Shown here piece after piece: positions 12,125 through 46,070 of a DNA stretch of 64,000 nt (its first letter is position 1; every line of letters starts with the position of its first letter). The notes under the pieces were generated by a model. It searched no databases. It saw only the letters and a program-made list of their open reading frames with translations, and was not told the origin of the DNA. The DNA is from Blasia pusilla. Its lineage: Eukaryota. Both the position numbers and the translations under genes were made by a program. The stretch covers positions 35,712,001-35,776,000 of the forward strand of contig CM114271.1 of the NCBI GenBank assembly GCA_050084515.1. Reading direction: 5' to 3'.

Positions 12125-15100
12125 AGAAAAACAAAGATCCGATAAAAATGAGTGATGGAAAACCCATCGGAAGTACAAAGAGGGGACTCAAAGAGTCAAA
12201 ACACAGAAAGGCCACAACAGACGAGAAAAGGAAGAAGGGGCATCCCCCCCTAACGACATTTAAACTCAACAAAGCAGAGACAATATCAGCAACAAGAGAG
12301 CTATGACTACTACTAAGTGGGCCTCTAGCGCCGGCGTCTCCCATACTGAGCCTACGCCAGCAAAATCCCATTAGCCTGGGCACAACGCTATGGAGACCGG
12401 CGCCTACAATCAATTAGCTAAGGACAACCCATTTTCGAGTGGAGATGATGGGCGATCCGTAATGAACGAGTCGAACCTCTCCCCCATATCCCCATACATC
12501 TCTATGGGCTGGGGGGATGAAGATGTGTCCTCGTGTAGTCCGTGGATATGTGTCTTCTTCGCCGCCGCCGCTTCCTTGTAGCATTCGCCCTTGGGCTACC
12601 ACTTTCAGACCGCCCCCGCGAGGATCTGTGACTACCACGTCCGCCACAACCACCTCAGCCTCACGTGTCATGTAGAGATCGGCACGAATGAGGGAATCCC
12701 GCATGGAGTAGTGCTCTTGACATGGAAGCCACTCTCCCGAACAACATGATAATTGCATCGTGAGTGGCTATCCTCTCACCCCAACTTGCCAAATGCACAC
12801 CAAGTGGATCCAGGCTCGGCGACACTCGCAGATGTCGAACCAATCACCGATGGTTGGGGAGGCCAAGCGGAACCGCATCGTGGTATAGGTAAGTGGTGCG
12901 ACACGGAAAGCTGGAGAAGGGGCGCGCCCCTACCCATGAGCCTGCCCCTTTCCGAGCAAGAGCATACGGGCCCTAACCTCCATGGGGATATTCCCGTCGG
13001 ACATAGTGCCTCTAAAACTGCCTCAAAGTGGGCTTCCATCAAGGAAGATTGGAGCCAGGATCGACCGGAGGTAACTAAGGAGGAGAAAGTGGGAGAACGG
13101 CTCGGCCTCAACTCAAGGGAATCTCTACAAGTGTGAGTGAAGACCGAAGTGGGAAAGAGCCATCCTCGACTGGGGGAGACGAGTGTAGAAGGAGCGGTCT
13201 ATCTCTAACCAAAAATCGGGAGCAAAGGAGGGGTGCCACTATGGCCCAACTCCCTAAAAAAGCGGAGGGCGCCACTAACTCGGTCGAGAGAAGACCTACT
13301 CCACCAAAAGAAATCGGCCAAGAGGCCTCACGAGCTAACTCCCCATGGGGCACTCTAGGATCCGGGTCCTAGAAGATCCCCAAACACTGCATGAGCTTCC
13401 TATCAAAGGATCTATATAGGGAAGAAAGGTGACTAGATGTCCAGCAGTTCTAGTGAGGTAACCAGGTCTCACGAGCAAAACAAGAAGAGAATGCAAGGCG
13501 ACTTGAGGGTCACCAACTCGTAAGATCATCAACGTGGAGAAGATCCTCGGTAAGAGCCACGCCACGAAAGTCGATGCAAAGAGGTACTCCCAAGACTCGA
13601 AGCCCTCGACAGTATAATGAAGCCGTCGGGTAAATGTAGATCATGATGTAGGCCTGATGGAGACCAAGCCTTGCACTTCCCCACCTTCACCGCCAGGCCG
13701 ACACGTGCCAATGTTTGAAAAGTGCTCGAATGCAGGGACAACCATATCTCGGGACCAACAATATGAGTATCATCTTGAAGGAACATGCAACCCGGGAAAG
13801 CCTCCACCGTAGAAAGAACAATGTAATGAGCCACACAAACAAAGGGTCACCCCCGAAGTCCCGAAGACTCCAAGACCGTGACCTCCTCTCGAATCGACCA
13901 TGGTGGAAATAGAGGGCCGAAGGGGCCCCAGAAAGCCTGCACAAAGGGAATGAGGCTCGCCATGGGGCCAATGAATATAGTAGCCGAGATTGAGTTGAAG
14001 GCGTTCTCCACATCCACTTGGAGAACCACCCACTCAGATGTACATCTAGACAAGGTCTCACAACACGGCGTGGCAACTCCAAATCGATGCGGACTGAGGA
14101 GAATCGAAAGCCTCACGGAATTGCAAAGCGAGAGTACGACTCACCAACCGCAAGAGCACCTCACCTATGGCAATCGGACGGATACCACCACCCCCTTTGA
14201 CAACGCCAAAAGTCGGCCCCTAATACTTGGGCCATCTTGGTGACACTCTCCCCGAGCTAGGTGAGAGGCAACCCGGCAACTCGGAGAAGCCGCTAGCGGT
14301 GTCCTCGGAAGGAAAGCAATCAAAGGTGACATCATAAGACAAACCTTCGGCCGCAATCCTCGAGAACGCCCGAAAGTGCCCAAAGAGGGACGGGTCAAGG
14401 CATATAGCCGTGTCGGGGTGGAAGTCACGCAAAAGCCGGAATGTCAACCGATGGACGAGGATGTCGCCCGGAGGGCATCGATGGTAACAACGAAGAAGGA
14501 GCCATGTCCATCGGGCGAAGAGTACGTGCGGTACTCGTGAGTACTCAAAGCTCGCCTCGATGTCCTACAATGCTCCAGGATCCGGGAAACCAGGTGAACT
14601 ACTACCTCGCGAATGCCACAAACTCACTCTGCAGAGACTCCCAATCACCTCCTGAAAGCGTCTCGGGCGTGCTATAACCTCTCTATGACCGGCCTTCCTC
14701 CCCAAGTGTAACGAAGACACCATCGTGGAAGGAGAAGTAGTAGGTACCACGAGAGCTCATCCATAGGATCAAGGGCGATCTAGCGAATAGCATGGGGATC
14801 CTATGGGCGGGGAAAACGGGTCTCGAAGAGACCTATAATCTTTGCCACTGGTGGGACCTCAACCACTCCCATGCCTCGGGTGGGGCGATGATGCGGGAAG
14901 CAGGAGAGCATTCATGGTCGACAAGAGGGACCACCCATCCAAATCTATCAAAGTCGGGATGTTTAGCCGCTAAGTGGTTCAATTCTAACAGTGAAGAATT
15001 CGGGACAACATGGGCATTTAGTATCCCGACTAGACGACCCACGGTTGGTCCCCAAGAAGAGGACATGGCCCCCTCCAATAAAATCGTCACGACAATCCCC

Positions 15101-15200
15101 GTCAAATGATTGTCATCCCCATTCGAACGAGCGGTCCTGGCAAACCACTCTCTTCCGTCCACAGTAATGCTCCCTCTAACATAAACTCTCACCTACCGAC
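12125..15200 (-). mobile_element. Decayed CRE-like non-LTR retrotransposon (RT plus C-terminal restriction-like endonuclease)
   Basis: RT pieces across frameshifts: GRLLALSK, GGIRPIAIGEVLLRLVSR, LSPHRFGVATP, WVVLQVDVENAFNSIS, GDPL, QDDTHIVGP. Downstream come LDPLGVHL..GERIATHDAI and RADLYMTREAEVVVADVVVTDP (RLE-type). Boundaries are approximate. Confidence 0.75.
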
Positions 15201-17361
15201 ATCACCTAGGACTTCTAGTCCCAACCCCTCCCAAAAATAAACTCATGAATAATTAGAGTTGCTAAGAGTGTGAAAAGATCATGGGCCCTTCTCACGGGAA
15301 GGGTAACAAATACAAACGTGAATCGAACCAAAATGAGAAGCACATCGACAAATACGACAAACAAGAAAGGACTTGGGAAAGGAGGGAAGGGTGGGTGAAT
15401 AGAGGCGTTACTTTGGGAAATTTCTCCAAATGACAATAAGCTAAGCCCTAATATTCACATTTAGAACCCTAATATGAACCGAATTCTAAAAAGATGAATA
15501 AAAATAAAAATACTTCACGCCATGCAGCAAGGTCCGGATCAAAACGAAGCTCTCGTCACGCTCTCCGTTTCGACATGTAGCAACGCCTCCTCCTTCCTTC
15601 CCCCCGTCCCCGTCCATGCCTCTCGCCGTCCCCGCCCAAAATCGCTGCTCCGTTGGATACTCCGTCTCCGCATGAACCAATAAACTCTTCAGAACTTCTG
15701 CAGAACCCGAGCAGCTCAGAGAAACGGGTGTGGTCCCACCTTGATGCTGTCATAATCTTGACTGGTCAAATGAGGACAATTCACCCTTCCTTGCATTGAT
15801 CACGCGACTGAGTCAACTCAGTAAGATCCGGAAATGCCCTGCCCGAAGCCTGCACAGGTTGGCTAAACTTGGTATCGTCGTTTCCACTTACTCACGGCAG
15901 TCATTGTAAGAAGTTTGGAAGTATGAGTTGCATTTCCATCCCCGCTACTTGCTCTCAGAAATAAGAAAATTAGAGAAAGATTCGACTCGTAGCTGCAGAA
16001 TTTTAAATCTTCATGTCTTGGAGACTGGACCGTACACTATAATTTCAGAAAATTCAAAACCAGTAGTGGACCATCAATTATCCTTTAAGCAATTCCAATC
16101 CCAGTCCGCAACAGAGATTCAGGGAGCAAGAACCATAGCTGGGGACAAATGTTGGTGATTTTAAAAGTTCTTCTAAAACCTCTGAATATCACTGTGGAAA
16201 ATTCAAGGTTATCCTTCAATTCTGTGTAGACATTTCGGGTATGTAGAATAATCATTCATTTGCACCTTCCTCCGCATTTCTCCCTCCTTGCCCTTCCGAA
16301 GTGCTACCTTCGTCCTCGGCCTCTACTGACACTCTGCGATGATTTTAAAGAAGCTTTACAATCAGTGTAAATCAGGTAAGCGAAATTTAGGGAGTGCGAA
16401 GATATTCGGTTGTGAAGATACTCGGATAGTTGGAATTTGAAGCAGTTGAAAACAGCGGCTGGGAATAAAAGGAACCAAGATTTGGTCATGAATCAACCGA
16501 AATTCCCTCGAATCGTCCTATAACGTAATCTTCGTTTGTTGCTACAAATTCAAGCAAGTGCGGTTCGCCGAGTAAACTACAAAATAGGAAGTATTTGATA
16601 ATACTGGGGTCAGTGCGTAACCACGCTATGCTGACGGCGGACCGCGAAAGCCACCGGGTAGTAGTAGGGTCGTTGCGACTTACTCCGACTCTCTTGAGGT
16701 TTGTTTACTCATCGAAAGCATTTTCCTTTGGAGACGTGCCTGTTTAATCTCTATGATATTGGGCCCAGAACTATGATCCTGTTACCTAGCAGTCTTCTAC
16801 CATATAGAAAAGAAACGAGGAGAATTTGAACAAATATAGAATGCATGCTTTGAAATTTCATATATTCTAAAGAAAAATGCGGATAAGGTCACAATTCTGC
16901 ACTGCAATACATCAATGTCGTACTTATCAGATCACATGCCTTGTTAGGAATCGCGGACTTTTAGTAGGCATCATCTTCACATCATTATCACCCTAAACTC
17001 ACGCTATTGAAACTTTTGATAACCGAAACACAATATTTATAAACTAATTACAAAGGCGTGAGCCTGCCTTGAGAACTCGCGCGACATCCACAACCCAGCG
17101 CGCTCTGGTGAAAGAACTTTAATTCCATCGCTGAGATATAGTATCGAAGCTTCTTGTTGCCACAAACTCCGGATAACAGGTACCATAATGCGCCGGAAAT
17201 CGCGCAGACCTATAGATCCCTTCGCATAAACTTTCACTCCAACCAAAAGTACAAAATGTAGTGGTTAGCTCCGCGTTCCACCTAAAATCAGTTCAGACCT
17301 GCGTCTCCAAGTCGTATGTACCTCGATCAGCGATCAAATGCGGCCGTCGCAGACCTCTTCA

Positions 17362-17517: not shown

Positions 17518-18713
17518 AAGGAGGTATGCGGTTTGAGTTAGGGCAGCCCCTTACGTACTTCGTTACGTATGGCTTTCGGGATACCCAAGCGCTCTTACGT
17601 GCTTCGGGTATCCGGCGACAACTGTAAGGGCGGTACTCGGCGTAATCAGACTGGCTTAGACTAGTCCTGATAGGTCCACGGGGAAGAAGTTCACGGAGGG
17701 AAAAACTTTGTTTAGTAATAATCTCTCTTTTTTAAAGTAAAAAAATTAATATCATTCGAAATAATAAAAGTTTCTATCGGACATTCGAAGAAACGGCACA
17801 TTTATTCTGGTTCCCATTTTTCCAGACGGGATTATTGTAATCAGTGCTCCCGGGAGCTCCTAACTTGGCCCTAAACCAGATTTGAATGGCCCTAGATCAT
17901 TATAACTTATTTATAAAATTATATTTTAATATCATCTTCTATAAGATGTGACTTCCAATTTGCACGAAAAGCGGCGTACCCTTTTCTCCAAATGGGAAAG
18001 GTTGTAAATGGTCCCCGCCCCCGCCCGCGTAGACACGCGCTTACCGAGCCCGCACCCGTTGCGTGGCGTGCCAGGGTCCGCGGCACGCCCCTAGGGCGGC
18101 TTGGCCCCCATTGGGCAGGCTCAAGCCCGTGTGGGGCCCGTATGGTAGGCTAGAGGCCCACAAGGGACATGCGTAGAGCTTGCCCAAAGCTCGCATGGCG
18201 GACTCAAGGGGAGCTCTACATAGGCCCTGCGCCCGCCCTACGAGCTCTGCGCGGGCCCCCAACGCGCCATGCAGGCCTGCTTGTAGGCCTACCGCGGGCC
18301 ACACAATGGATGCAGGCTTTGTCAGCCCCGATCTACGCGGTGGACTCTAGGAAGGGCCGGGAAATCTTGTGTAAATCCCACGTCCGGAGGCGATCAGGAG
18401 TTTCCGCAGGACAAGAAATGATCGGTCCTAATAGCGGTCCCAAAAACCTTTGCCGTTTGGATGAAAGGAATCATATATATGGACTATCTATGAATACAAA
18501 ACAAACCATGTAATTTGATAAAAATAAATATACATATGAGTCATAGAATTGGAGTTGGAATGTAGACTTTGGAGGTCTAATTGACGCCCTTTATTGCCCT
18601 ATTCCCCATTTTTATGGCCTATTGCATAAGAATATTATGGGGCCACTCACTTGTAGTTGTAAGACCATGTTATGGCACTTTTAGTAGTCATCATATTGTA
18701 TTCGCTTGGATAT

Positions 18714-19066
18714 TGTAACTCTCCAGCTCACGGAACCACTCTAGAGTTGCTCAAAGGTAGAATGCCCTCAAGGCCTCTCCTCTTCCTTTATATACTTAGA
18801 GATAGGTACAATGAAGACAAATTAGCTCTACCTATCCTTATGCCACATGTCCTACTCTCATAGCATGAGAGAATCTCCTTTGGAGTCTAATGTCCCAACC
18901 TTATCTTCCTCAACCTCATCCTTATCTCCCTTTTCACCAACCTATGGCCCCACTCTCATCTTTATCTCATGTATCTTGTCTTTTCTCTTTTTGGTTGATT
19001 CTTTCCCACTTATGCGCTTCATGTCATAGATTCTAACTTAACTATGACTAACAAAGGATGGTTACA
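18714..19066 (-). repeat. 3' LTR of the chromovirus
   Basis: TGTAACT...GGTTACA on the + strand; direct repeat of 24299-24651. The adjacent 19067-19081 reads AAATGGGGGGAGGTT on the minus strand (polypurine tract). Confidence 0.97.
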
Positions 19067-19079
19067 AACCTCCCCCCAT

Positions 19080-22000
19080 TTAAGACACAACGTCCTCGTT
19101 GTGAGAACTTTCAAACTCTTGCACTATTAATGGTGCGTTCGCCAAGTTGGCTGAGGGTTCCCATGTGGCCTCAAATAGTGGATATCCTTTCCACTGGACC
19201 AAATATTCAACTCGTTGGTGATGAGCTCCTCGAGTGCGTTTCTTCAAGATACGTTCCACTTCAAATTCTTCATGATCTCCGACTATTTGAGGAAGTGGTG
19301 GAGTGACAATATTGTCCTTAAATCTTTTAGGGCGTGGAATAAATGGTTGAAGAAGAGAGACATGAAACACAGGATGGATTTTCATATGCATCGGTAGGTC
19401 TAGCTTATACGCCATGGCGCCCACTTTTTGTAGTATAGTGAAAGGCCCAATATAGCGAGGATTAAGCTTACAAACTCCTACTAATGATAAATTGGTTGTT
19501 GCTAACCAAACCTTGTCCCCTTCACAAAACTCGACATCTCGACGATGAGCATCTGCATATTGTTTTTGTCGATTTTGGACAATAACCAACTTCTCCTTAG
19601 TAAGTTGAACCCCTTTCTGAATTTGGTCCACAAACTCATTAACTGCAGCTACCTTTGTAGGTTCCCCCAGACTTTTCCCTATTCGAGTGAGACTAGAAGG
19701 AATTGAAGGATGCTCGCCATGCATTAAAAAGAACGGTGTGATCTTAGTGGAAGAGTTCATGGAGTTATTGTATGAGAACTCTACTAAGGGTAACAATGAG
19801 TCCCATCCTTGTTGATCCTCCAATGTTAAGGCGCATAACATTTCCTCAATAGTACGGTTGGCCCTTTCAGTTTGTCCATCAGTTTGAGGATGATAAGCCG
19901 TAGATATGGCTAGTTTAGTTTGGAGCAATCCGAATAAAGCCTTCCAAAATAAACTCGTGAAATGGGTTCCCCTATCAGTGATTAGCACTCTAGGGAGACC
20001 ATGATGGACAAAGACTCTCTCGATGTAGATCCTAGCCAACTCTGGTGCAGTCACAGTCTTCTTGGTCGGACGAAGGTGTATCATCTTGCTTAGTCTATCC
20101 ACAAAGACCACAATAGAGTCATATCCCGTGATCGCACATGGTAGCTCACAAACAAGATCCATAGTGACTTGTTCCCAACGTTTTTGAGGTATTGGGATCG
20201 GCTGCAACAATCTTGCTGGTTTTGTGTTACTAGCCTTGATTTGTTGATAAATCCTACAACTCCTTACATATATGTCAACATCTTCTCTCATTTTGGGCCA
20301 ATAGTATGCTCGTTGTACTCCTTCTAAGGTTTTTTTCAGCTCCCAAATGACCCGCAATGACTGTGTCGTGAGCTTTAGACAATACTTCAGTGCATAATTG
20401 TGGATCTTGTGGGATCCATACTTTACCTTTATGGAAAACCAATCCTTGAGCCTTATATACTCTGTTGGCATGAATAGCCACTGCAATTTCTTCATCCTCC
20501 TTTGTGGCTTTGGATAACTTTTTCCACCAACTAGAGTGAATCTCCACTTCAGATATGTTATTCATCTGTGATATACGAGTCAAGGCGTCTGCCAACTGCT
20601 TCTTTCCTTCCACATAGATAATTTTCATCATGAATTGTTGTCGCCATTCTGCCCATCGAATTTGTCGTTTGGAGAGCTCCTTCTGGGACTCTAAGTAGAC
20701 CAAGGGCTTGTGATCAGTCTCCACCACAAACTCCTTATCGCCCAAGTAATGTTTCCAATGCTTGGTTGCCAACATAATAGCAAGTTCTTCTCGCTCAGTT
20801 GTATGGTAGTTTTGCTCCGTTGGCAATAGCTTGCGAGAAAAGAAGGCAATAGGATGCCATCCATCCTCCCATTCTTGTTGTAGTACTCCTCCAATGCTAG
20901 TACCTGAAGCATCTGTGGCCAACTTAATGGGTCGATTAGGATCATACCACTTCAATATAGGGGCTTTGATCAAGGCATCCTTTAATGATTGAAAAGCAAT
21001 CTCTTGTGATGTGCCCCAATTCCATTTTTGTCCTTTCCCTAGTAAAGTGTTATGATTGTGCAATTTGAGCAAAACCTTTGACAAATCTTCGATAGAATCC
21101 TGTTAACCCTAGAAAACTCTTCAATTGAGTTTGATCCTCAAATGCACTCCATTTTTGGATCGCTTCTACCTTCTCACTCATCACTTGGATACCTTTTGCG
21201 CTTACTCGATGCCCTAGATAATCAACTTCTGTTTTACCGAACTCACATTTTGACGCTTTAGCATACAACTCATTATCTCTTAGGATTTGAAGGACTTCTC
21301 GTAGATGATTTATATGCTCCTCTATCGTTTTACTATAGACTAAGATATCATCTAAGAATACAATGACAGACTTGTCTAAATATGGACGAAAGATATCATT
21401 CATTAGGCCCATAAAGGTTGCATGTGCATTAGTAAGACCAAATGGCATGACTAAGTATTCAAAGTGTCCATATCTAGTACAAAAAGCAGTGTTGTACACA
21501 TCTTCATCCGCAATTCGAATTTGATTGTAGCCGCTACGAAGGTCAAGTTTGGTGAAGTATTTTGCTCCTTGTAGTTGGTCGAACAAATCATCCATTCTTG
21601 GTAATGGATATTTGTTTTTGATTGTTTGTTGATTCAGTGCTCGATAGTCGATACACAGTCGCATGCTTCCATCCTTCTTTTTCACAAAAAGGACAGGGGC
21701 TCCATATGGCGAGACGCTTGGTTGGATGAAGCCTTTCTGCAACATCTCCTCCACTTGGGCTTTGCATTCTTCTAATTCTCTTGGAGCTAAGCGGTAAGGA
21801 GCTTTACATGGTGGTGTGCTTCCTGGAAGGATCTCAATCTTGTGGTCTACCCTCCGTTTGGGTGGTAACCCTGATGGTAAATCATTTGGGAATACATCTT
21901 TGTATCCCTCCAATACTTCTCTCAACTCGTCTAGTACCTCGGAATATTTTTTCAAACCATAAACATCTCTTATTAAACCTAGGAAATATATATCTTGATG

Positions 22001-22447
22001 TTTGATGGCGGTTTTTCCTATTACATATAGGGGTAGGGTTCTAGGACGTGATCTGACTCTGTCTACGTAAAGCTTCCACTCTCGGGTCTTCACAATCTTT
22101 TTTCTCCAATCTACCTCTGGATTATACTGTTCCATCCAAGGCATTCCCAAGATAACATCATAACGTGCTAACCTAATGACCTTCATCTCCAACTCTTCCA
22201 GATACTTTCCTATCCTCAACTCTACCCTTCGAGGAAGCTTCTCAATCTTTTCTGTTTGCCAATTTGGTAATTCTACCTCTTCTTTCTGATCCCTCTCTAA
22301 AGCTAAGCCCAATTTCATAGCTATGGCTCTTGAAAGGAAGTTTTCTGTTGCCCCAGGATCAATCAACACTCTAACTTGGGATCCTTCTACTTCCCCATCT
22401 ATAACAATGAGACATGTTTCTCCTCTCTTCAAACCATTTACCTCCAT
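19080..22447 (-). pseudogene. pol: Chromovirus pol (protease, RT, RNase H, integrase, chromodomain), frameshifted
   Basis: Protease [32 protein letters not shown]; RNase H TDAS..GGVL; integrase HD..IAGHLG, MDLV, TDRG, QTER; GPF motif; chromodomain EFEVERIL..YLVQWKGY..ATWEP. Split over ORFs 21050-22447, 20275-21084 and 19080-20495. Confidence 0.93.
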
Positions 22448-22456
22448 ATGTTTGTG

Positions 22457-23628
22457 TCAACCCTCGCCTTTCCTCCTTTTGTTAGAACCAATATATTTTG
22501 TAGGCGCGACATCGTGGTTGGCGTTTCTTCGAGGTCCGCCTTCTTCGTCATCTTCCTGCATATGCCCTCCTTCAAGATGATTAAGGGGGCGACGATATGG
22601 CCTATTTCCGAGCCTACGAAGACGACAATTCATGGCTATATGACCATATCTACCACACTCAAAACATTGGCGTGTATCTCTTCGGACTTCGAATTCTCTC
22701 CCTCCTCTAGGAATCCCGACCCCGTCGGTTCGAGGAGCAATCCCTTGTATGTTGGGGTTCCGATCTCTCTCCATTGGCACCCTTCCATTATACCTTCGCG
22801 GCGCATAACCATCTCGTGCTCGAAGGTTACCCAACTCCATGGGTGTGCGTCCGTATTGGTTGTTCATGGAAGCAACCACCTCTCCTCCTCCTTCGTACAC
22901 ATTTGCCATACGTTGGGCACATGCGATTGCTTCATTGATATCTTTGGGTTGTCTGGAATCACCTCTTGACGCACCTTCTTCTTCAAACCTCTCTTAAACA
23001 GATCGAGAGCTTCTGGCCCACTCATGTCGCGGATTTGTATCTGCAAGTCACGAAACTCTTCGATGTAGTCCTCCACAGTTCCTTTCTGCTCCAGTCGCCA
23101 TAATTTCATTCTAGTAGTGAGGATTGGATCCACAGCTTGGAAATTTTGCAACAGCCCTTGCTTCATTCCGCTCTATGTAATTTGTTGAGTTGTTTCAATC
23201 AAGGATCTCTCCCATCCTTGATACCATATCAATGCTCGATCGATTAACCAAGATCTTACGAACATCCCTGCAATATGATCATCAATGTTGAAAAGGGATA
23301 AATGAATTTCCATCCGAGTGATCCAACCCTCTAATACCCCCATGGCTCAACTTCCTTTGTACGGTTCTACCTTGCATGCCTTTGTCATTTTCAATATCAA
23401 TGAGGCTTGAGCATTCATCTCCATCACTCTTTGTGCTGCTTGGGCCTCTAATACTCGTGCCCTTAAGGTTTCGTCACTCTCCCCAGAAGTCACGACACTC
23501 GTGGTTTCCGTCTCCATCCCACCTATCGGAAGAACTCTCTCTCTCTCTACTCTCATATTTATGACCGAAGCAACTTCTTGCGCTAATTCTTGGACTTGGT
23601 TTTGACTTTGATCAAATGCAACTCTCAA
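22457..23628 (-). pseudogene. gag: Chromovirus gag, fragmented
   Basis: LEQKGTVEDYIEEFRDL...LFKRGLK (retrotransposon gag) and zinc knuckle CFECGRYGHIAMNC; broken into three ORFs. Confidence 0.88.
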
Positions 23629-24285
23629 AATCTCAATTCACGAATCATATCCCTCAAAGTTTCTTCCATGATCGCTCCGACTTTCCCCTAACCCTTTACT
23701 ATCACTCTAATATAAGATCAAGATATACACCTGCCAATTTCGCACAATAGGGACTACAAAAGGTAGTGTTGATGCAATGACTTCATCATAATACGCTTGG
23801 CCAAACTTCCTCACCATAAACTCTCTATATGCTATCGTAGGGACAAACCACATGGATTATACATCGAGTGTTAAAAAACACTTGTGGGGGCCTATTCAAA
23901 TCCATTCCCCATATCTCCTCTAAAACAATATATAAATAGTGCAATCCCACACACGATCATATGTAACAATAGGGAGGATCACCGGATAGCGAAACTCCAT
24001 CACTTGCGTCATGAAAACTTCACCAAAGTGATATACGAGGTATCTCGTGAACTAGTGTCTATCTACATATAAAAGTTTGATGGTGAACGGATTAAGAAAC
24101 GGGAAATTAGGAGCCACTCTCGCTCCCCCTCCATCCATTATCTGCAAAACAGCCCTTCCCCCTTACTCTACTTGCAGCTCTATAGCCAATGCCAGCCTCT
24201 AACAACCTATCTATTCTAAACAGTATATCATTACTTAGTCATCCTTCCAAGAGGGGTAATCCACTCTCATTGGAAGAGCAACCTT

Positions 24286-24297
24286 GCTCTGATACCA
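24286..24297 (-). promoter_or_regulatory. Primer-binding site (tRNA-iMet)
   Basis: Minus strand reads TGGTATCAGAGC one base after the 5' LTR, the canonical plant iMet primer-binding site. Confidence 0.93.
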
Positions 24298-24298
24298 T

Positions 24299-24651
24299 TG
24301 TAACTCTCCAGCTCACGGAACCACTCTAGAGTTGCTCAAAGGTAAAATGCCCTCAAGGCCTCTCCTCTTCATTTATATACTTAGAGATAGGTACAATGAA
24401 GATAAATTAGCTCTACCTATCCTTATGCCACATGTCCTACTCTCATAGCATGAGAGAATCTCCTTTGGAGTCTAATGTCCCAACCTTATCTTCCTCAACC
24501 TCATCCTTATCTCCCTTTTCACCAACCTATGGCCCCACTCTCATCTTTATCTCATGTATCTTGTCTTTTCTCTTTTTGGTTGATTCTTTCCCACTTATGC
24601 GCTTCATGTCATAGATTCTAACTTAACTATGACTAACAAAGGATGGTTACA
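24299..24651 (-). repeat. 5' LTR of the chromovirus
   Basis: Direct repeat of 18714-19066, followed on the + strand by the TSD GATAT. Confidence 0.97.
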
Positions 24652-32002: not shown

Positions 32003-32770
32003 TGTCGTGCGCACATATATCGCTACACAACATACATCGCTATCATCGAACACACACACAAACACACACGATCCCATGCTAACTCATGACATCCATACAC
32101 AGAGGCAAGAAGTACCAAAATATCTCAAATAAAGTAAGTTCCAATCTCTCTCTTCACCATCTCACACCATAGCTCTCAAAGGTGTGCACTCTCTCTCATG
32201 TCAAACCAAACCCATTCTCTTAATGAGAGGTTTGGGTTACATTCACAAGGCAAGGGACCATAGCTCCGCCGCCTTATGCCAAGAAGTTCAAAAAAGAAAG
32301 AATGAGCTCTCAAGCTCTCTCTCTTGGAGGTATACCCCCTTCCCTCTCCCAAGCCCTCTCAACGGTAACCTATGCTCGTAGGTCACCTCCTTGATTCTTG
32401 ACCTGCTGTAGCGGGTTAAGGGCCACTTCCCAAAGTGTAAATTCAACTATCCCCAACATGGAAACTTACCCGAAATAGTAAATTTCTCTATATGGCTCCA
32501 AATGAGCCGAAACGAAAGGGGAACCTGCTCTCTCAGGTTTCCCGGGGCCTCAACAGGTCATCCTCAACCTCATGGCCCTGTCCTCCACTACTCGTGTAGA
32601 CGCTCTGCTAGATCCCACCGATCTATCCTAGCAGTCGTGACAGCTGTCGTGGGCATACACATTGCTACACAACATACATCGTTGTCATCGAACACATAGA
32701 CAAACACACACGATCCCATGCTAACTCATGGCATCCATATACAGAGGCGAGAAGTACCCAAATATCTCCA
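32003..32770 (-). repeat. 3' terminal a-b-a repeat block of copy 1
   Basis: a = 32003-~32127 and a' = 32645-~32770 (~125 bp direct repeats) enclose b = ~32130-32642. The b/a' junction on the + strand reads GTGACA-gc-TGTCGTG. Confidence 0.9.
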
Positions 32771-32958
32771 ATCGCACCCCTAGCTGGTGGTTAGGTCCCT
32801 CTAACTCCAGATAGCCATCTATCCCTACCTACCACGACATACATCTCTAGGACGCTAAGAGCACAAAGGCCGGGTGCTCGTATGGCCCCATCGTTAGTCG
32901 CCTTCATCTCATCCATGTCCCAAAAAAAGTCAAAATCGAAACCTACATAGTATCTCCT

Positions 32959-34212
32959 CTATGTACATGTGGGACATATCCATCGTCCCCGAGGAACCCT
33001 AGTGAGAGATGGCGTCAGACATGCCATATGCAAACCTCTTGAACATCCATCACAGACTAGCATCGTGGCCGTACTACGAGCAGAACCACACAACATACAA
33101 CGCAAGCCTGCAGGAACTACTGTTGAGCTCGGATCTAATGTACCATTAATGTTAGGAAGGTGACATAGCGCATAATTACGCACATGGTCCTTCCATACCA
33201 TACCATACCATCGTGTCCCTCCAGCAAGAGAACACCGGATGGCAAAACGTCACGCATTCTCAAGAGTGCGCCCTGCAGTCACATCCAACATTGTTGGTGC
33301 CGTCTGCTGCAAGTAGACATAATCTCCCTGATGAAACCTCCGAATAGTTGGTCGATAACCACCACCCCAAATAGTCGCATACCTCAACGTATCCCAATAC
33401 TGTGGAATCGCCAAGTTCTCGAACGCCATGGGCATCACTCTCTGAAACAACTCAGCCCTCTTAGAACATGCTCGCATCCATACATCTGGGTCATCAAGGT
33501 CCAGCACCTCACCAGCATCTCGACAAATGGCCTTAGGTAAATCTGGCTCTCGGCCATAAAGTAGCAAGTACGGTGAAAAAGACGCTAAGGATGCTTGCCT
33601 GCTGAATCTGTATCCCATCGCCAACCACGGCAACTAGAGGTCACAATCTCCTAGGTGACCTCTCTGCAAGCCATACTTGCGTAAACCCCTCTTCACCGTC
33701 TACAAAACTCTCTCCGCTAATCCATCTGCCTTGGGATGATCTCGCGAAGTCGTGCAGTGGTCGATCAACACCTAATCACACAAGGCCTAGAACTCACCGC
33801 GAAACTCGGTACCCTGGTCTGTCAACACCTTAGTCGGTGCGCCATAATGACTCAGCACTATGTCAAGGAAGGCATAAGCTACTCCCTCACTCGCTTTTTC
33901 AGGAAATGCAACCAACTCGATCCACTTCGAGAAGTGCTCGACCATTACCAACACATAACGACTCTGACCCTTTGTCAAAGGCAAAGGTCTTGCAAAATCC
34001 AAACTCCATCTATATCCTAAGCCCATGATCGATAATGAATGCAACTGTGGAGTCGGAGCATTGAACGATGCTCGGACCCGATCACACACCATGCACCTGG
34101 CAACAAGCTGCTGAACGTCACTCTGCATGCCTCGCCACCAATACTGAATCTGGAGCAAGCTGTACATCCGCTTCACCCCAAAGTGACCCAACTCCTCATG
34201 GGCATGCTGCAC
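32959..34212 (-). pseudogene. DDE integrase with C-terminal PHD finger (copy 1)
   Basis: HHCC domain HAHEELGHFG...CMVC; core WSLDF, VEHFSKW, LTDQGTEF; SPYLLLYGREP; then C4HC3 PHD CMLC..MLVCDGCSRGLHMACLTPSLTRVPRGRWICPTC*. Confidence 0.92.
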
Positions 34213-34215
34213 TAG

Positions 34216-35900
34216 TCATGCTCTCTGCAAAGGATGCGGCACTACGCATACTCTACCATCCTCCCAAACCCTCAAAACATGTGTCCCCTCCCAACGGAAC
34301 CGTCTGGCCCGTTGTAGGATCCGATCCCGCTCTCTAGCACACACAGTGCTCGCAACACCGCCAGTACGAAGGTACTCCAAGACAACTCCATCATCATGAA
34401 TATATTGACCACCTGTCGTCTCCTCACTAGCCTCAGGATCCAAGGACTCTCCACTAGACCTTGCCATCAAAGTCTCCACACTCTGGCTCTCCATAGCCAA
34501 CATGCCTAAATAGGCTGACGCGTGCCATCCTGACAGTGACTCCTCATCACTCTCTCCATGCCATTGAGCTCCAATTGCATCTCGCTGACTCGGGCATGGG
34601 TTACCACTCAGCCCATGTGCATCCTGGTTGAGCGTCCCAGGTATATGTACCACCTGAAAATCGTACTCCTGTAGCAACAGAGCCCATCTCGGAAGCTTCC
34701 TTGTAAGCTTGTCGGACTCCACCAACCACTTCAGTGGTTGATGATCAGTGATGATGGTAAAGGGGTTGCCAATTAAGTAACACCTGAAATGCGCGACAGC
34801 CCATACTGCAGCCAAGCACTCACCCTCATACGAGCTGTACTTTGCCTCTACAGCATTGTTCGAGCGGCTAGCGTAAGCCACCACAAACTCTCTACCCTCA
34901 TCATCATGCTGGGTGAGCACCGCTCCAAGCCCCAACATGCTCCAATCTCTGTGCAACTGGAAAGGACGCCCCCTGATCGCTCTCCTCAAGATGGGCACAG
35001 ACGTCAACCTATCCTTGAGCAACTGAAATGCTCGCTCCAACTCATCCCCTCAGTGCCACTCGTGATCCACCTTGGTCAGCAAGGTTAGCGGCTTCGAAAT
35101 CAAATGAATCCCTTGACGTACCACCTATGGAAGTTCGCCAATCCTATGAATGCACGAACACGGCTCACATCTATAGGGCGTGGAATGCGTGAAATAGCCT
35201 CTACCTTCGTATGTTGAACACCAAGGCCCCCTGGGTATATCGTATGACCCAAGTACTCAATCTAGTCATAGAAGAACTTGCACTTTCCTGGATGTAGCTT
35301 CAGCCCATGTAATTGAAATGGTCGAAACACCTCCTCTAGATGTCGCTTATGCTCCTCAACCGTGGCGCTAAAGACTACGATGTCATCAATTTAACACCTA
35401 GCAAAATCAAGAGCAGCCAAGATTCTATCCATGACCCTCTGAAACTCAGCCGGGGCGTTCTTTAACCCAAATGGTAAGAACCGCCACTCGTACAAACAAT
35501 CCTTCCCGTGAGGATTGATGCCCCGAAATGCCGTCTTCTGCCTGTCCTCCAATTTGATAGGCAGCTGATGATATCCGGCTTGCAAATCCGATGAATTGAA
35601 GACCTTTGCGTGACCAATCGCATCAAAGATCTCTTTAGGGGTGGGCATGGCATACCTATCGGACTTCATCTGCCGATTGATAGGTCGGTAATCCCCACAC
35701 ATCCGCCTATCCGTCCAGTTTCCATGCACATCCTTCTTGGCGGGCATGACAGTGGTAGATACATGCTACCCATGCGACATCTCCACTAGTCCTGCTCCGA
35801 CCAACTCCTTGCTCCTACTCTGAATCAGAGCCCTCTCCATATCACTGTACATGTAGGATCGTCGGAAGATCGGCGTATCACTTGATTACTCAATGTGGAT
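34216..35900 (-). pseudogene. Reverse transcriptase and RNase H (copy 1)
   Basis: RT RMCGDYRPIN, DLQAGYHQ, LPFGLKNAPAEFQR, C*IDD; RNase H HRDWSMLGLGAVL, YSSYEGECLA, ITDHQPL. Confidence 0.93.
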
Positions 35901-36369: not shown

Positions 36370-37490
36370 CCACTCCCAAGCTGAGGATTCATGTCAAATA
36401 GTTTAGGTCCATCGCTTGACCGAAGACATGGCGTCGTGATGCCTCTGACACTGACGATACTACCGTCACTCCTTTGGGAAATCCCATCGCTCGCTCTCTC
36501 TCTCGTTGGCATTGGGCTCCACCAACCGCTGAACCTGGTCATCCCAAACAAAGCCAGGACCGGCCTCCTTGTATGCATAGGAAGCGGGAAAACTCACAAA
36601 CGTGGGCAAGGCTTCCCGCGGCTTGCCTACCCTATTGACCACAATCAACGGTGGTCAATCATCGTGCCTCATTGCTTGTGATTGACGACTTGGATCCAGA
36701 ATGGAATCCACTAACAAATCGAAGTGGCGCTCCACTCTTGCATATGCCCTCCGTAACACCGCATGGGGCACCAAGTTGGTCCACCATAGACGCGGGCAAT
36801 GGGCTCTAGAACCTACACTCGCTGCATCCTAGAACACATCCAAGAACATCCAAGAACATCCAAGATCCAAGAACATCCAAGAACATCCAAGAACATCCAT
36901 CCAAGAACATCCAAGAACATCCATCCAAGAACATCCAAGAACATCCAAGAACATTCATCCAAGAACATCCAAGAACATTCATCCAAGAACAATGCAGGGC
37001 CGATCCAGGCACGCACATGATGAGCACTCGTCACCACCCATGACATGGAATCTCCTAAGATCGGCACATTCTCCAGAATGTAGGCTGGAGAACGAGACTG
37101 GAGCTCTTGCAACTACCGTAAGACCGTCAACATCTCCCAAATAACCTGGACCGAGTGTCACCCAACCCGTTGCCTCGTCCATCACTCGATTGGCCTTGAC
37201 ATGGCCAACCGACAAAGGCCAAATCAATGGTCCCTACCCGCTCTAAGTCCTGCGCCCCCAACAACGAAATATCCCTCGGTAGGAAACTTTGGTACCCCTG
37301 TACCGCGGACACAAACAATAAGTCGGAAAAATATAAGCATAACTACGCCACATGTCGTAGTAAGACGCGCCTCGCAACATCATCACTCTCCACATACAGG
37401 TACTGCTGCACTCGCACTCTTGCCTGCAAAACAACAGCTAACCCGGTGCTAATCCCTCCTTAGAGATCTAACACTCGAATACCCTCCTCC
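36370..37490 (-). pseudogene. DNMT3-like C5-cytosine DNA methyltransferase domain within pol (copy 1)
   Basis: Motif I GIRVLDL*GGISTG; II YLYVE; III DI; IV IDLAFVGWPCQGQS; VI YILENV; VIII RAHCPRLWWTNL; IX-X region EPNANERE... Confidence 0.92.
36825..36990. repeat. CATCCAAGAA tandem-repeat expansion inside the DNMT domain
   Basis: Imperfect array of a 10-bp unit with 14-bp variants. Copies 2 and 3 have a single unit at the equivalent site. Confidence 0.95.
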
Positions 37491-41249: not shown

Positions 41250-41380
41250 GACGGTGGACCGTTGACGGTGATGGCCGACCGTTGATGGTGACGGCCGAGC
41301 GGTGACGGTGATGGTTGATGGTGACGGTTGACCGATGATGGTGACGGTTGACCATTGACGGTGACTATGACCGTGGCGGT
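41250..41380. repeat. Low-complexity GACGGT/GATGGT repeat in the 5' leader of copy 1
   Basis: Repeated GTTGACGGTGATG-like hexamer variants. Confidence 0.75.
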
Positions 41381-41927
41381 TGGTTTAGGATTTGAATAAT
41401 TTAACCCTAAAATTGCCTAGCAATGGCAGTTTTGCAAGATTGATCATAACTTTTTGCTCGCAATCCAAATTGCACACTGTTTGTTGCACATCGTGCACAG
41501 CTTCACAATCTACAACAGCGTCAAAAAATATTTAGAATCAAACATTCCAGTAAAAACTGACGGGGATTGTTGTAAAGCCCAATGTCTCTTTCTCCTACAC
41601 AAAATTTGGCAACGCTTCCGCGCTGATTTCTCCCAACGAAAATGTAAAACCTGTAAAAATACAAATCAGCAAGCTACATGGTGCACTCGAGAGCGCCGGT
41701 ATGGGGCAAGCCACCCCCATAATCAATTCTTATAAAAAATTGGGCAGCGCTTCCGCGCGCCACTCTTCCACACGAAAAATCGGCAAATGCAAAGAACAAT
41801 CAAAGCAGCCCTTGCTCCGGTGAGAACTCTCTTGAGCCGCTGAACGGTGAACACGGTCCCCAACCTGAAAAAATAGCGAGTGACCAGAGACCTCCCCCAT
41901 GAAGCTCTCTCATTCTCTCATTCTCTT

Positions 41928-42443
41928 TGTAAAGTAAGATCCAATCTCTCTCTATACCATCTCACACCATAGCTCTCAAAGGTGTGCACTCTCTCTCATG
42001 TCGAACCAAAACCACTCTCCTAATGAGAGGCTTGGATTACACTCACAAGGCAAGGGACGATAACTCCGCCGCCTTATGCCAAGAGGTTCAACAAAGAGAG
42101 AATGAGCTCTCAAGCTCTCTCTCTTGGAGGTATACCCCCTTCCCTCTCCGAAGCCCTCTCAACGGTAACTCTATGCTCGTAGGTCACCTCCTTGGCTCTT
42201 GACCTGCTGTAGCGGGTCAAGGGCCACTTCCAAAAGTGGAAAGTCAACTATCCCCAACATGGAAACTTACCCAAAATAATAAGTTTCTCTATATGGCTCC
42301 AAATGAGCCGAAACGAAAGGGAAACCTGCTCTCTCAGGTTTTCCGGGGCCTCAACAGGTCATTCTTGACCTCCTGGGCCTATCCTCCACTACTTGTGCAC
42401 ACACTCTGTTAGATCCTACCGATCTATCCTAACAGTCGTGACA
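41928..42443 (-). repeat. 5' terminal repeat (b only) of copy 1
   Basis: Direct repeat of ~32130-32642 with about 40 differences in ~515 bp by eye (~92%). No copy of segment a and no TGG primer site follow it. Confidence 0.92.
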
Positions 42444-44203
42444 GAGTTCCCGTGGCCCGCATCCGAGCCTTTGTCATTCAATTTGTAGACCGCATCGGGC
42501 GTGTTAGGTCCCGCTTCATGGAGGAGTCCTACCACGTCGCAGACGAGTTGGGCCTTGATCGGGCCGGCATGCATGCTCTAACGTCCACATCGAGCCCGCA
42601 AGACCCCTATTGGAAGCCCAAAAAGGGCCGCACGCATGGCTTGCACCCAACATCCAATCCGTGATCGCCATATGGCACCTTGCAAGTGTTTTTGTAGACT
42701 TGCATCCAACTTGCCAATCAAAGATTGCCACTTGGTGCCTTGCAAGTCATCCCCTTGACCCACGTCCTACAAAACCCGTGAGGAAACGTGGTGAAGTTTC
42801 ATTGTTGGAGGCTAAAAGAAATTCAACTCCTCCCTTTCTAACTCCCAAAATGGGTTTTAAACGAAAATCCATAAGGAATTGAAAGGGCTCACAAGTGGAG
42901 CCCAAAATGCTCTTAAGTGGATGAATAGGCCTAATTAACTCATATTTTCACCATTTTCACCATTTCTTTGAGAGCACAGTATTTTTGGATTCGGCCCTAA
43001 ATTTAATTCGTGCCTTGAGAGCTTAGGGCTTTCAACATTGCTAGGAATTTTGGGGAAATCTATTGCGTGCCTTGGGGTCCGGGATAGTTAGATTTTGTTT
43101 ATGACCAACTTGGATATTTGTGCTCCTTGTTGTGTCTCAAACAAAGTCTAATTTATTCCACATTAGGTGAGAGATTGTCGATGTGGAATTCTTTTGTGTC
43201 AGTGTCTCTTTTTTGGTGATTTTGAGAACTCCAATTTATGGTCTCGAGTTTAGATTTGTTTCATTGGCTTTCCTTACCACATTGAGGATATGGAGGTGGT
43301 CAAGGAAACTTATCTGAGCGCGCATATATTCCCTCTAAGTGCTTAACCCTAAACCTAGATTCCACATTCTATCAATTACGTTTTTCATCTTTTTAGTACT
43401 ACCTAATCTCCACCTTTAGATTTCTTTGGTTGGTTGTGTAGGAAATCTTCCTATCTTCTTTCTTTGAGCTATATGTTTAGTGGGGTTGAGTCATTGGAGG
43501 TAAGAGATAACCAAATGGAGTCGAGTGATAGTTTCAAAAGGTAAAAACTCAATTCCAGGATTGACTTTAACATGGCTACAAGAGAGGCATGGATCGACAA
43601 GTTTTTCTAGCTTACATTAGAGAAGAGATGATACTATATTTCGAGGGGTATGGATGGTTTCCATGACTACACCTTGGAATCGCAAAGATTTTCTATGAGA
43701 GTTTCAGAGTCAAGAAACTAGGAATTCAAGGCCAAAGAGGCCCAAAGGTTAAGTGCATTTTGTGCCCAACAAGGTGTTCACTTGGAGAAAGCATATGTTG
43801 ATCTTAAGACATACAAGAAGGAGAAGCCCATTGTTGCTAATTAAGACAACTCTACTAGAAAGATTTTGTGCAAAGTTAAAATACTCAACATTTTTTTAAG
43901 GGATATAATAGTTCAGTGGAGAGGATATTCGTAGTTCCACGTGGATGTATGTGGATTTTTAACCAGGATACAATAATAGGACATAATCTTGAGGATACTT
44001 TGGGCTTAGGTTGACATGGAATCGTGTGCAATTGTAAAGTAAACCAAACCCTTGGCTTTAGTGAAGATATTTAAATTACTATTGCATGAAGGTGTTTAAG
44101 GAAGCATTTTGATTATATTTAAGACAATCAATGATGCGTGAGGAGATTTTTGCTATCTTACATCAAGGGATGGTTGAATTATGGTTCTGTGGTGGTTGAA
44201 TTA

Positions 44204-46070
44204 TGACCCAGGTACTCAATCTGGTGGTAGAAGATTTGCACTTGCCTGAAGGTAGCTTCAGCCCATGTAATTGAAATCGTCGGAACACCTCCTCTAGATG
44301 TCGCTCATGCTCCTCAACCGTGGCGCTAAAGACTATGATGCCATCAATTTAATACCTAGCAAAATCCAGACCTGCCAAGATTCTATCCATCACCCTATGA
44401 AACTCATCCGGTGCGTTCTTTAACCAAAATGGTAAGAACCGCCACTGGTACAAGCAATCCTTCCCATGAGGATTGATGCCCCAAAATGCCGTCTTCTGCC
44501 TATCAGCAACTGATGGTATCCGGCTCGAAGATCTAACAAACTGAAGACCTTTGCATGCCCAATAGCATCAAAGATCTTCTCAAGAGTGGATATGACATAC
44601 CTATCGGACTTCGTCTGCCAATTGATAGGTCAATTATCTCCACACATCCGCCTATCCGTCCAATTGCCATGCATATCCTTCTTGACGGGCATGATAGTGG
44701 CAGATGCATACTCTCCATGGGACATCTCCACTAGTCCTGCGCCAACCAAGTCCTAGCTCCTACTCTGAATCAGAGCCCTGTCCATGTCACTATACCTGTA
44801 GGGTTGTTGGAAGAACGGCGTGTCACTCAACAACTCAATGCGGATCTCTCGACCCTTCAGCGTACCCAAATCCTGCATACTAAATGCAAAATAGCTCCTA
44901 TAACTCCTAAGGAATTGGTATATCCGGCGCCGCTCTCCTTGTGTCAACTTAGGGCCCATATCTGGCTCCCAAGTCTCCATCGTGACTACAGTAGGACTCT
45001 CCGGTGTGGGTGTCGATGGTTGCTATGGTGCAACCCCATCTCGGATAACAAAACTCGACTGCTCCCCTGCAGCCAATTGCAAAATCGGATCTCTATGTGT
45101 AGTACCCGGAACCACGCTCAATGTTGTGGCTACCATCTCCTCGCGTATGTGCAAAACATCTCACGAAGTCCAAGGATGTATCTCCCAATCACCCTCGGTG
45201 TGTCGATCTCCTCGAGTCTTGCCCCAAGCCACTGCCTCAACCATCTCGGTAGGCATGGGGCTCATCAATGCAACTGCTATGATCTGTCGTATCCTCAAAC
45301 GAGGCTACTCAGCTACTCCTAAGCTGAAAATCCATGTCAAGCAGTTCAAGTCCATCGCGTGACCCAAGACATGACGGTGATGCCTCTGATAGTGACGGTA
45401 CTGCCGTCACTCCTGTGGGGAATCCCATCGCTCGCTCTCGCTCATCGGCGTTGGGCTCCACCAACCTCTGTACTTGGTCATCCCAAACCAAGCCAGGTCT
45501 GCCTCCTAGACTACATAGGAAGCGGGAAAACTCACCAATGTGGGAAAGACTGCTCGTGGCATGCCAATCTTGTTGACCACAGTCAACGACGGTCGATCAT
45601 CTAGCGTCACTGCCTGTGATCGACGGCCCGGATCCAATATAGAATCCACCAGAAAATCGGAGGGACACTCCACTCTTGCATATGCCCTCTGCAACACCTC
45701 GTGTGGTACCAAGTTGATCCACCAACGACGCGGGCGATGTGCTCGTGAACCCACACTCGCCGCATCCAACAAAACTTTTGGGCCGATCCATGCGCGCACC
45801 TGATATGCACTCGTCATAACACGGGACCTCGAATCGCCCAAAATTGGTACATTCTCCAGAATGTATGATGGAGGACGAGATTGATGCTCCTACAAGTGTC
45901 GCAAGATCCGCATCATCTCCCAAAACAACCTGGACCAAGAGTAAGCTAATCCGCTACCCCGTCTAGCACTCGACTGGCCGTGACATGGCCAACCAGCAAT
46001 GACCAAGACTATGGTCCCTACTTGATCCAAGTCCTGCGCCTCCAACAATGAAATGTCCCTTGATAGGATA
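44204..46070 (-). mobile_element. Internal fragment of the DNMT-gypsy family, copy 2 (DNMT motifs III-X, linker, RT)
   Basis: DISLLEAQDLDQVGTIVLVIAGWPCHGQS, YILENV, RAHRPRRWWINL, EPNADERERAMGFPTGVT, then RT. Collinear with ~35240-37280; truncated at both ends. Confidence 0.92.

Follow-up and report, generated by a model that had tools for sequence, protein, structure and literature searches.

Split terminal repeats and a DDE integrase in a clade of Ty3/gypsy retroelements represented in Blasia pusilla

In the textbook long terminal repeat (LTR) retrotransposon the integrase sites lie at the edges of the LTRs, and the provirus is colinear with the linear cDNA. A retroelement of the Ty3/gypsy type in Blasia pusilla, here called copy 1, raises the question of how an integrated element can be built otherwise: it begins with one repeat, b, and ends with a block of three, a-b-a. 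Copy 1 lies in a 64,000-nt stretch of contig CM114271.1 (assembly GCA_050084515.1, positions 35,712,001-35,776,000); this whole stretch is the window, and positions in copy 1 and its neighbours are given in its numbering. A preliminary description of the window had noted the split repeats and proposed a non-standard priming, strand-transfer or circular-intermediate route. We find that the same plan recurs in four diverged families, and that it can be read as a circular permutation of the expected reverse transcript.

Repeat plan of copy 1 and its relatives

A repeat scan, self-BLAST and direct reading agree on the order b1 - leader - gag/pol - G-run - a1 - GC - b2 - a2 for copy 1 (42443-32003, minus strand, which is the orientation of the element and of all its features below). 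The 5' terminal repeat b1 (514 nt, 42443-41930) starts with TGTCACG and corresponds, in reverse-transcription terms, to the 3' part of U3 plus R-U5. Some 9.1 kb of internal region separate it from the G-run AGGGGTGCGA (32781-32772), a polypurine-type tract (plus-strand primer site) that directly adjoins a1, the internal copy of repeat a (127 nt, 32771-32645; the start of U3), which ends in CACGACA. A 2-nt spacer, GC (32644-32643), sits in the palindromic junction ...GACA-NN-TGTC... and is followed by b2, the 3' copy of repeat b (513 nt, 32642-32130), and by the terminal repeat a2 (127 nt, 32129-32003), whose CACGACA end is the 3' terminus of the element. The target-site duplication (TSD) ACTC stands at 42447-42444 and, identically, at 32002-31999. 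The repeats are 92.0% identical between b1 and b2 (515 aligned positions) and 89.0% between a1 and a2 (113/127), both far above chance. These readings bear out the b ... a-b-a layout of the preliminary description; its sizes of 515, 125 and 2 bp and its 4-bp duplication (GAGT on the plus strand) are right to within 1-2 nt, and its purine tract indeed precedes a, not b.

The reading frames of copy 1 are broken, and Pfam finds in them RVT_1, RT_RNaseH, Integrase_H2C2, rve and then a PHD finger, in this order: a reverse transcriptase (RT) fragment (RVT_1, E=2e-13; 35394-35765) whose surrounding frame is broken, RNase H (RT_RNaseH, E=2e-34; 34219-35049), the integrase zinc-binding domain and DDE core (Integrase_H2C2, E=4e-16, and rve, E=2e-10; 33790-34215), and a C-terminal PHD finger (PF00628, E=1.3e-12; 32965-33099) in the open reading frame (ORF) 33249-32962. 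Pfam gave no gag or protease match on the 5' ORFs of copy 1, where a zinc finger below threshold was the only match, and no tyrosine recombinase or Phage_integrase-type match among the window ORFs. Inverted repeats of at least 80 nt are absent from the window.

The named proteins closest to the pol of copy 1 are those of liverworts (Calypogeia, Riccia and Marchantia), followed by those of the streptophyte algae Closterium, Klebsormidium and Chara. Many named relatives carry RVT_1 - RNase H - H2C2 - rve - PHD; the order was confirmed in three intact proteins, in which no tyrosine recombinase was found. With an alignment of the named relatives we retrieved 80 metagenome loci of 408 confirmed relatives, at 40-78% RNase H identity to the window element, while a scan of viral contigs gave 67 pattern matches, none of them confirmed as relatives. 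The 47 longer loci were analysed by self-BLAST and then by motif-anchored inspection, and contigs with both flanks in common were merged (L010=L020, L039=L041, L060=L062, L066=L073=L076, L063=L064=L077, L078=L079 and L050=L051).

Three metagenome families besides that of the window show the same repeat plan, which is kept at ~41% RNase H identity. The arrangement a-NN-b lies 3' of pol in 15 unique insertions (class i): eight in family 1 (L003, L010, L013, L014, L016, L039, L052 and L066, of which L014 is without a2 and L016 without a1 owing to a deletion), three in family 2 (L064, L071 and L079), two in family 3 (L050 and L054) and two in the window family (copies 1 and 3). Seventeen unique insertions, 12 of family 1 and 5 of family 2, have only one a, after which unrelated sequence begins (class ii). 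In all four families the G-run stands 0-4 nt upstream of a1, and the spacer, GC in copy 1 and AC in copy 3, is gc, tc, ac, at or gt among the relatives. Copy 3 of the window consists of a1 (54700-54574), AC, b (54571-54076) and a2 (54075-53950), all on the minus strand, with an internal part that reaches at least to 63991 and a 5' end beyond the window; its 3' terminus is the same a end as in copy 1, in a different, unrelated flank. The block at 54700-53950, the host reads described below and the metagenome relatives thus uphold the earlier view of the arrangement as a family trait. One candidate was rejected: the repeats of L055 (12583-13310 and 14328-15058) are unrelated to this layout.

The 5' ends bear most directly on the reading of copy 1 as a conventional element with a b+a LTR, which would have lost its 5' a and retained a1 as a passively inherited relic of a partial LTR. 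Fourteen 5' ends are visible, those of 13 unique metagenome insertions (L007, L009, L010, L021, L024, L039, L062, L066, L064, L070, L079, L054 and L050) and of copy 1. Each of them shows b immediately next to unrelated sequence; neither a-NN before b nor a after b occurs in any of them, so that the full b+a 5' LTR with a following primer site, which the preliminary description had named as the sign of a mere deletion in copy 1, is seen at 0/14 5' ends. Paired identical LTRs are likewise absent from all eight complete class-i copies, which begin with b alone and finish with a-NN-b-a. It is true that a b+a unit has TG...CA ends and that old copies commonly show partial LTR duplications and deletions. 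However, the G-run in every case adjoins a1 and in none b2, the primer site (see below) directly follows b, and a1 and a2 are as similar to each other as b1 and b2, so a1 is not an old relic.

Reads of the host speak to the same point. We sampled about 1 in 100 reads of DNA run X16, which carries the host's species label, and mapped them to copy 1 at a likeness of at least 80%; 187,793 reads mapped, and depth was tabulated in 369-nt bins. The family of copy 1 is very abundant in the host: depth is ~2800-3500 over pol against 33 in the right-flank bin (~3000 against at most 33). At the boundary of G-run and a1 (32776) depth is 3297, equal to that of pol, which indicates that a follows the G-run in essentially the whole host family. 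Leader depth is 962-1004 at 10-14 nt from b1 and 1120-1240 elsewhere; because it is even up to b1, contiguity of b and leader is also the norm of the host family, and this continuity of depth from b into the leader again opposes a lost 5' a. The leader reaches only ~40% of pol depth and is thus the part in which family members differ most. A family-wide 3' terminus is marked by 1277 reads that break off exactly at the last A of ...CACGACA (32645) and run on into flanks that share no consensus (agreement 0.33), and 365 split reads (223 + 130 + 12) connect the end of b to the start of a. No joint from the end of a to the leader is found among the 15 listed of 706 joints, which is weak evidence. 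Together, these data make a conventional b+a LTR very improbable.

Two further features belong to copy 1 itself. A tandem-repeat block lies at 36825-36991, and 534 host reads skip 155 nt of it (joint 36824 to 36980), which indicates that copy 1 is expanded relative to most family members. The long, ORF-poor leader contains short tandem units of the caccgtca type at 41300-41420.

The a-b-a block might instead be of independent origin: a terminal-repeat retrotransposon in miniature (TRIM) or a tandem insertion, as raised in the preliminary description, or a nested insertion, lodged at the 3' end of a gypsy element. The block a(127)-NN-b(513)-a(127) does match a TRIM in size and shape. Against this, the gypsy element itself begins with b, one target duplication encloses everything from b1 to a2 in 7/8 complete copies and so marks it as a single insertion, the block stands at the same place in four diverged families, and the depth of 3297 at the G-run/a1 boundary equals that of pol, unlike that of an independent high-copy TRIM. 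We regard this origin as scarcely credible, the least probable of the alternatives considered here.

Integration signals and replication signals

With element ends set as TGTCA...GACA, we compared the four flanking bases of each copy. Among class-i copies the two flanks agree at 4/4 positions in copy 1 (ACTC), L066 (CATA), L010 (TCTC), L039 (AAGG), L079 (TGAC), L054 (AATA) and L050 (ACTT), and at 3/4 in L064 (ATTA and ACTA); among class-ii copies they agree at 4/4 in L021 (TGTG) and L070 (CATC), at 3/4 in L024 (GGTA and AGTA) and at 2/4 in L062 (ATCA and AACC). A perfect 4-bp TSD is thus present in 7/8 complete class-i copies and in 2/4 class-ii copies. The termini TGTCAYG and CAYGACA are inverted repeats and are conserved across all four families (41-78% RNase H identity). 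Because these inverted termini stand 2 nt apart in the internal a1-NN-b2 junction, that junction is a palindrome of both element ends. At the outer ends of a-NN-b both TG/CA and inverted repeats are missing, which makes these ends unlikely integrase substrates; the only integrase-type sites in a-NN-b are the two halves of the internal palindrome.

These results weigh on a replication of the DIRS, PAT or Ngaro kind, in which a circular or single-stranded intermediate would be resolved by recombination and the DDE integrase would have no special role at the palindrome. The layout favours it, since A1...B1A2B2 is the defining plan of PAT, Ngaro and Viper elements according to the account of them in PMC4157794. 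The enzymes and ends do not: neither copy 1 nor any of three intact relatives showed a tyrosine recombinase, the perfect 4-bp duplications (7/8) and the conserved TG...CA inverted termini point to DDE integration, and pol is closest to Ty3. Among PDB entries its strongest match is 7q5b, the Gag-Pol chain of the Ty3 intasome (E=4e-101), and the integrase part also matches the integrase of prototype foamy virus (PFV; E=1e-19). The preliminary description had likewise assigned a gypsy RT and a DDE integrase to the element, and the RT-RNase H-DDE integrase set is indeed of the Ty3 type. We therefore consider replication of the DIRS kind improbable.

The absence of a tRNA primer site was also noted correctly: no TGG-type site follows b or a in copy 1 or in the relatives inspected. 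Instead, the leader opens in each family, directly behind b, with 10-17 nt that are the complement of a stretch of b itself. In the window, the leader start CAAAGAGAATGAG.. pairs with the b segment ..CTCATTCTCTCTTT at 13/14 positions; in family 2, TTATAGAAAAACTATAA pairs with TTTTAGTTTTTCTAGAA at 15/17 (L064); in family 1, CTCAAAGAAC.. with GTTCTTTGAG at 20/21 (L039); and in family 3, AAATCCAGAAAATTG with CATTTTTTTGGATTT at 13/15. In copy 1 the predicted self-primer binding site (CAAAGAGAATGAG..., 41910-41929) lies directly 3' of b1 and is complementary to 42107-42093 within b1, the predicted RNA start and self-primer segment; a TATA-like box lies at 42134-42130. In three families a TATA box precedes the start of the complementary segment by 27-32 nt (family 2, TATAAAAGG at b position 133; family 1, TATAAAG at 138; window, TATAC at 311). 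Compared with 1000 shuffles of each leader, the complementarity is significant in at least one copy of all four families (window, p=0.015; L064, 0.002; L070, 0.001; L066, 0.001-0.002; L039, 0.001; L024, 0.009; L054, 0.019). The paired sequences vary between families while the geometry stays constant, which amounts to covariation. Self-priming has been described for Tf1/Sushi, Tcn1 and TAR elements (PMC6317226), and the arrangement after b is a predicted self-primer site of this Tf1/sushi type, the RNA 5' end being placed from sequence. Non-standard priming, as first proposed, is thus supported. In L009 two 333-bp direct repeats (2016-2348 and 2836-3168; 89% identical) lie directly after b1, at the expected primer site, and may represent a small terminal-repeat element nested there.

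Under the standard two-jump scheme of reverse transcription, an LTR by definition extends from the plus-strand primer tract to the minus-strand primer site. Since the G-run directly precedes a and the predicted primer site directly follows b, the LTR of reverse transcription is a-NN-b: U3 is a, NN and the first part of b up to the predicted RNA start, and R-U5 is the rest of b, ~125-177 nt. An RNA running from b1 to b2 would then be expected to yield a cDNA a-NN-b ... a-NN-b, of which the integrated form b ... a-NN-b-a is a circular permutation. The b2/a2 joint links the last base ahead of the primer site with the first base past the G-run and is therefore a U5/U3 junction; it follows from the anatomy that the standard linear cDNA contains no such junction. 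The earlier reading of the internal a/b junction as the 3' end of the element joined to its 5' end holds true. Its likening to a circle junction does not hold in terms of reverse transcription, where the U5/U3 junction is b2/a2 and a/b is an attachment (att) palindrome.

Several observations concern the renewal of the repeats. The identity of a1 and a2 equals or exceeds that of b1 and b2 in 5/6 copies, and at the informative sites in the window a1 groups with the a2 of its own copy (5 : 2 : 1). The b/a joint varies by one A in the host (cttta/ttgg in 223 reads, cttta/a/ttgg in 130) and is A, GA or an 18-nt insert in family 1; the boundary of G-run and a1, in contrast, is constant. The 18-nt insert lies at L010 10830-10858 (= L020), exactly at the joint of b end and a start, where other copies have 1-2 nt. 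The similarity of the a pairs and b pairs, the grouping by copy and the variation of the joint agree with a and b being regenerated in each cycle and with the joint being newly made. We are accordingly highly confident that the permuted architecture is real, conserved and replicatively maintained.

Proposed route of integration

How might such a form arise? The best available mechanism is integration of an end-joined cDNA at its internal att sites, to which we assign a probability of about one half. The ends of the cDNA would first be joined, as in a 2-LTR-type circle or an equivalent end-joined form, which would carry two palindromes. Integrase would then make a staggered cut, 3' of CA on both strands, in the palindrome adjoining the leader, releasing b - leader ... 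polypurine tract (PPT) - a-NN-b/a with recessed CA-3'OH ends and 2-nt 5' overhangs, a normal substrate for strand transfer. Strand transfer would yield b - leader - gag/pol - PPT - a-NN-b - a with a 4-bp duplication. Class-ii copies could come from a cut 1-LTR circle, from a linear cDNA cut at both palindromes, or from later deletions between a1 and a2. Cleavage of palindromic end-to-end junctions by integrase is reported, in the relevant parts of these sources, for the 2-LTR junction with the tetrameric integrase of human immunodeficiency virus type 1 (HIV-1) (PMC1905944) and for foamy virus (PMC1180852). The circular intermediate suggested in the preliminary description remains the simplest topological explanation, and it is from topology that we infer it.

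A number of observations detract from this mechanism or from the evidence for it. All copies studied are old, with repeat pairs 78-94% identical and broken frames, and all are integrated; it is from their sequences that we infer the circle, the end-joined cDNA and the RNA end. Cleavage at an internal site by an integrase of the Metaviridae is likewise assumed by analogy with retroviruses. Self-primer complementarity is not significant in the decayed copies L079 (p=0.18), L007 (0.06), L010 (0.68), L021 (0.75) and L062 (0.29), and it is lost in L009, where the leader has been replaced. Single-a copies slightly outnumber a-NN-b copies (17 vs 15 unique insertions), and class-ii copies could be mere a1 x a2 deletions and so provide no test of the model. 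The first base of a2 is A in 4/6 family-1 copies, and G in 6/6 a1 and 10/11 single a repeats; a non-templated A at the joint would explain this, and so could a separate inheritance of a2. In a pairwise test of closeness between a1 and a2 in family 1, the partner ranked 3-14 of 22, which the star-like burst formed by the copies accounts for. Finally, the mirror form b-a-NN-b-leader...a occurs at 0/14 5' ends; were the palindrome chosen at random, its absence from the seven class-i copies outside the window would have a probability of 0.5^7. Either the process is directional, or the mirror form collapses fast owing to its close b copies. A directional process could be end-to-end switching by RT, or a cut at the left LTR of a linear cDNA followed by end-joining.

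The first of these options makes for a different account of the b/a joint, which RT would create by an end-to-end template switch from the end of U5 to the start of U3 on the same or a second cDNA, rather than by ligation. The substrate would be linear (a concatemer, or a cDNA with an extra terminal a), and integrase would cut the left palindrome and process the a end at the right. The absence of the mirror form at 14 5' ends suggests just such a directional process over random cutting of a symmetric circle, and the near-seamless joints with their one-A variation would also be expected from end-jumping with a non-templated A. Conversely, no established scheme of reverse transcription yields b/a, the same switch at the other end would give the mirror form, and the 18-nt insert at the L010 joint looks more like end-joining. 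Template switching is the main rival of ligation as the source of the joint and seems to us rather unlikely, although nothing in the present data separates it from ligation.

More tentatively than the integration of an end-joined cDNA as such, we propose that this 2-LTR-circle-type cDNA is the normal and obligatory route of the clade. The att palindrome would have moved ~115-180 nt into U3, every productive provirus would be permuted, and the clade would be a DDE-integrase counterpart, possibly of the ancestral type, of the split-repeat plan of PAT, Ngaro and TOC1. If so, the split-repeat layout stems from the opening of a circle away from the U5/U3 junction and not from the use of a tyrosine recombinase. 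A natural lineage that seems to need a U5/U3-joined intermediate would make circles as integration precursors directly testable in a plant system.

Known systems and neighbouring elements

By gene content the clade is Ty3/gypsy, by repeat plan it matches PAT, Ngaro, Viper and TOC1, and by priming it is like Tf1/sushi, yet it lacks a hallmark of each: the paired LTRs of the first, the tyrosine recombinase of the second and the chromodomain of the third. With Ty3 and other Metaviridae it shares the order RT-RNase H-integrase, the H2C2 zinc domain, the DDE core, TG...CA termini, a short TSD of fixed length and a purine- or G-rich plus-strand primer tract. It differs from them in that paired identical LTRs and a tRNA primer site are absent, the integrated ends lie inside the LTR defined by primer-binding site (PBS) and PPT, and a PHD finger stands where chromoviruses have a chromodomain. 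With Tf1/sushi chromoviruses and plant Tcn1 it shares a sequence after U5, here of 10-17 nt, that is complementary to the predicted transcript 5' end, and the lack of a PBS of the tRNA type. Tf1-type elements differ in their ordinary paired LTRs and their chromodomain; the likeness seen is one of priming.

PAT-like, Ngaro, Viper and TOC1 elements are not known to make a target-site duplication. They encode a tyrosine recombinase, in contrast to the DDE integrase, 4-bp duplications and inverted TG...CA termini found here. What is identical is the plan A1 - internal - B1 A2 B2, in which the internal B1A2 is the right end joined to the left, as set out for them in PMC4157794. Cleavage of the 2-LTR circle junction in PFV and HIV-1 resembles the proposed mechanism in that a palindrome of two viral ends is cut by integrase and recessed ends are regenerated (relevant parts of PMC1905944 and PMC1180852). 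In the retroviruses, however, the palindrome is the U5/U3 junction itself and the route is a side route, whereas here it lies ~115-180 nt inside U3 and the route would be obligatory.

Among green-lineage Gypsy elements, Gypsy-7a_cRei and REM1 of Chlamydomonas also have a PHD finger in the polyprotein, according to the section of PMC9940879 on them; Gypsy-7a_cRei differs in having two LTRs, the left one short of the right by only its final 8 bp. Ordinary LTRs, and no split layout, are described for the Chlamydomonas PHD-finger Gypsy elements in the parts of PMC9940879 available to us, in which the 'LTR subparts' at first taken as a candidate are curation jargon for a section of a consensus LTR and not a split LTR. 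The word PHD is likewise absent from the portion of a survey of plant LTR retrotransposons (PMC6317226) available to us. A full-text literature search found no DDE-integrase or gypsy element with split or permuted LTRs, and an earlier description elsewhere is possible. Some relatives of copy 1 (among them P0012, P0015, P0017, P0023, P0051 and P0068) also carry a C-5 cytosine DNA methyltransferase domain (PF00145) in the polyprotein, beside RT/RNase H and sometimes a PHD finger.

Across ~41% RNase H identity, then, the replication signals (PPT and PBS) and the integration signals (TG...CA and TSD) define two units that are permuted relative to each other. Split direct repeats are thus not diagnostic of tyrosine-recombinase elements, which bears on the origin of the DIRS, PAT and Ngaro architectures. 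Programs that search for paired LTRs would call b...b an LTR pair, set the 3' end wrongly by the length of one a, overlook the primer site, or leave out the 17 copies with a single a altogether; because the host family is very abundant, the annotation of bryophyte and streptophyte-alga genomes is affected.

The window holds other elements. Copy 2 (44202-46068, minus strand; self-BLAST) is an internal fragment of the family of copy 1, from the RT region, without terminal repeats. Copy 3 contains at 59287-61617 about 2.3 kb without a counterpart in copy 1 (the offset between the two changes from 21,684 to 23,986), probably a nested insertion. The region 12000-16000 is GC-rich (0.51-0.52, against 0.33-0.41 around it) and has no ORF of at least 200 aa. 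A conventional chromovirus at 18712-24651 (minus strand) serves as an internal control: its 355-bp LTRs are 99.2% identical and have TG...CA ends, a G-rich tract precedes the 3' LTR, and the duplication is of 5 bp (ATATC). One base after its 5' LTR stands TGGTATCAGAGC, which we take to be a primer site of the initiator-Met tRNA type. Its ORFs encode protease, RT, RNase H, integrase, a Tf2-type SH3 domain and a chromodomain, and the element is a young one of standard layout in the same genome as the permuted elements.

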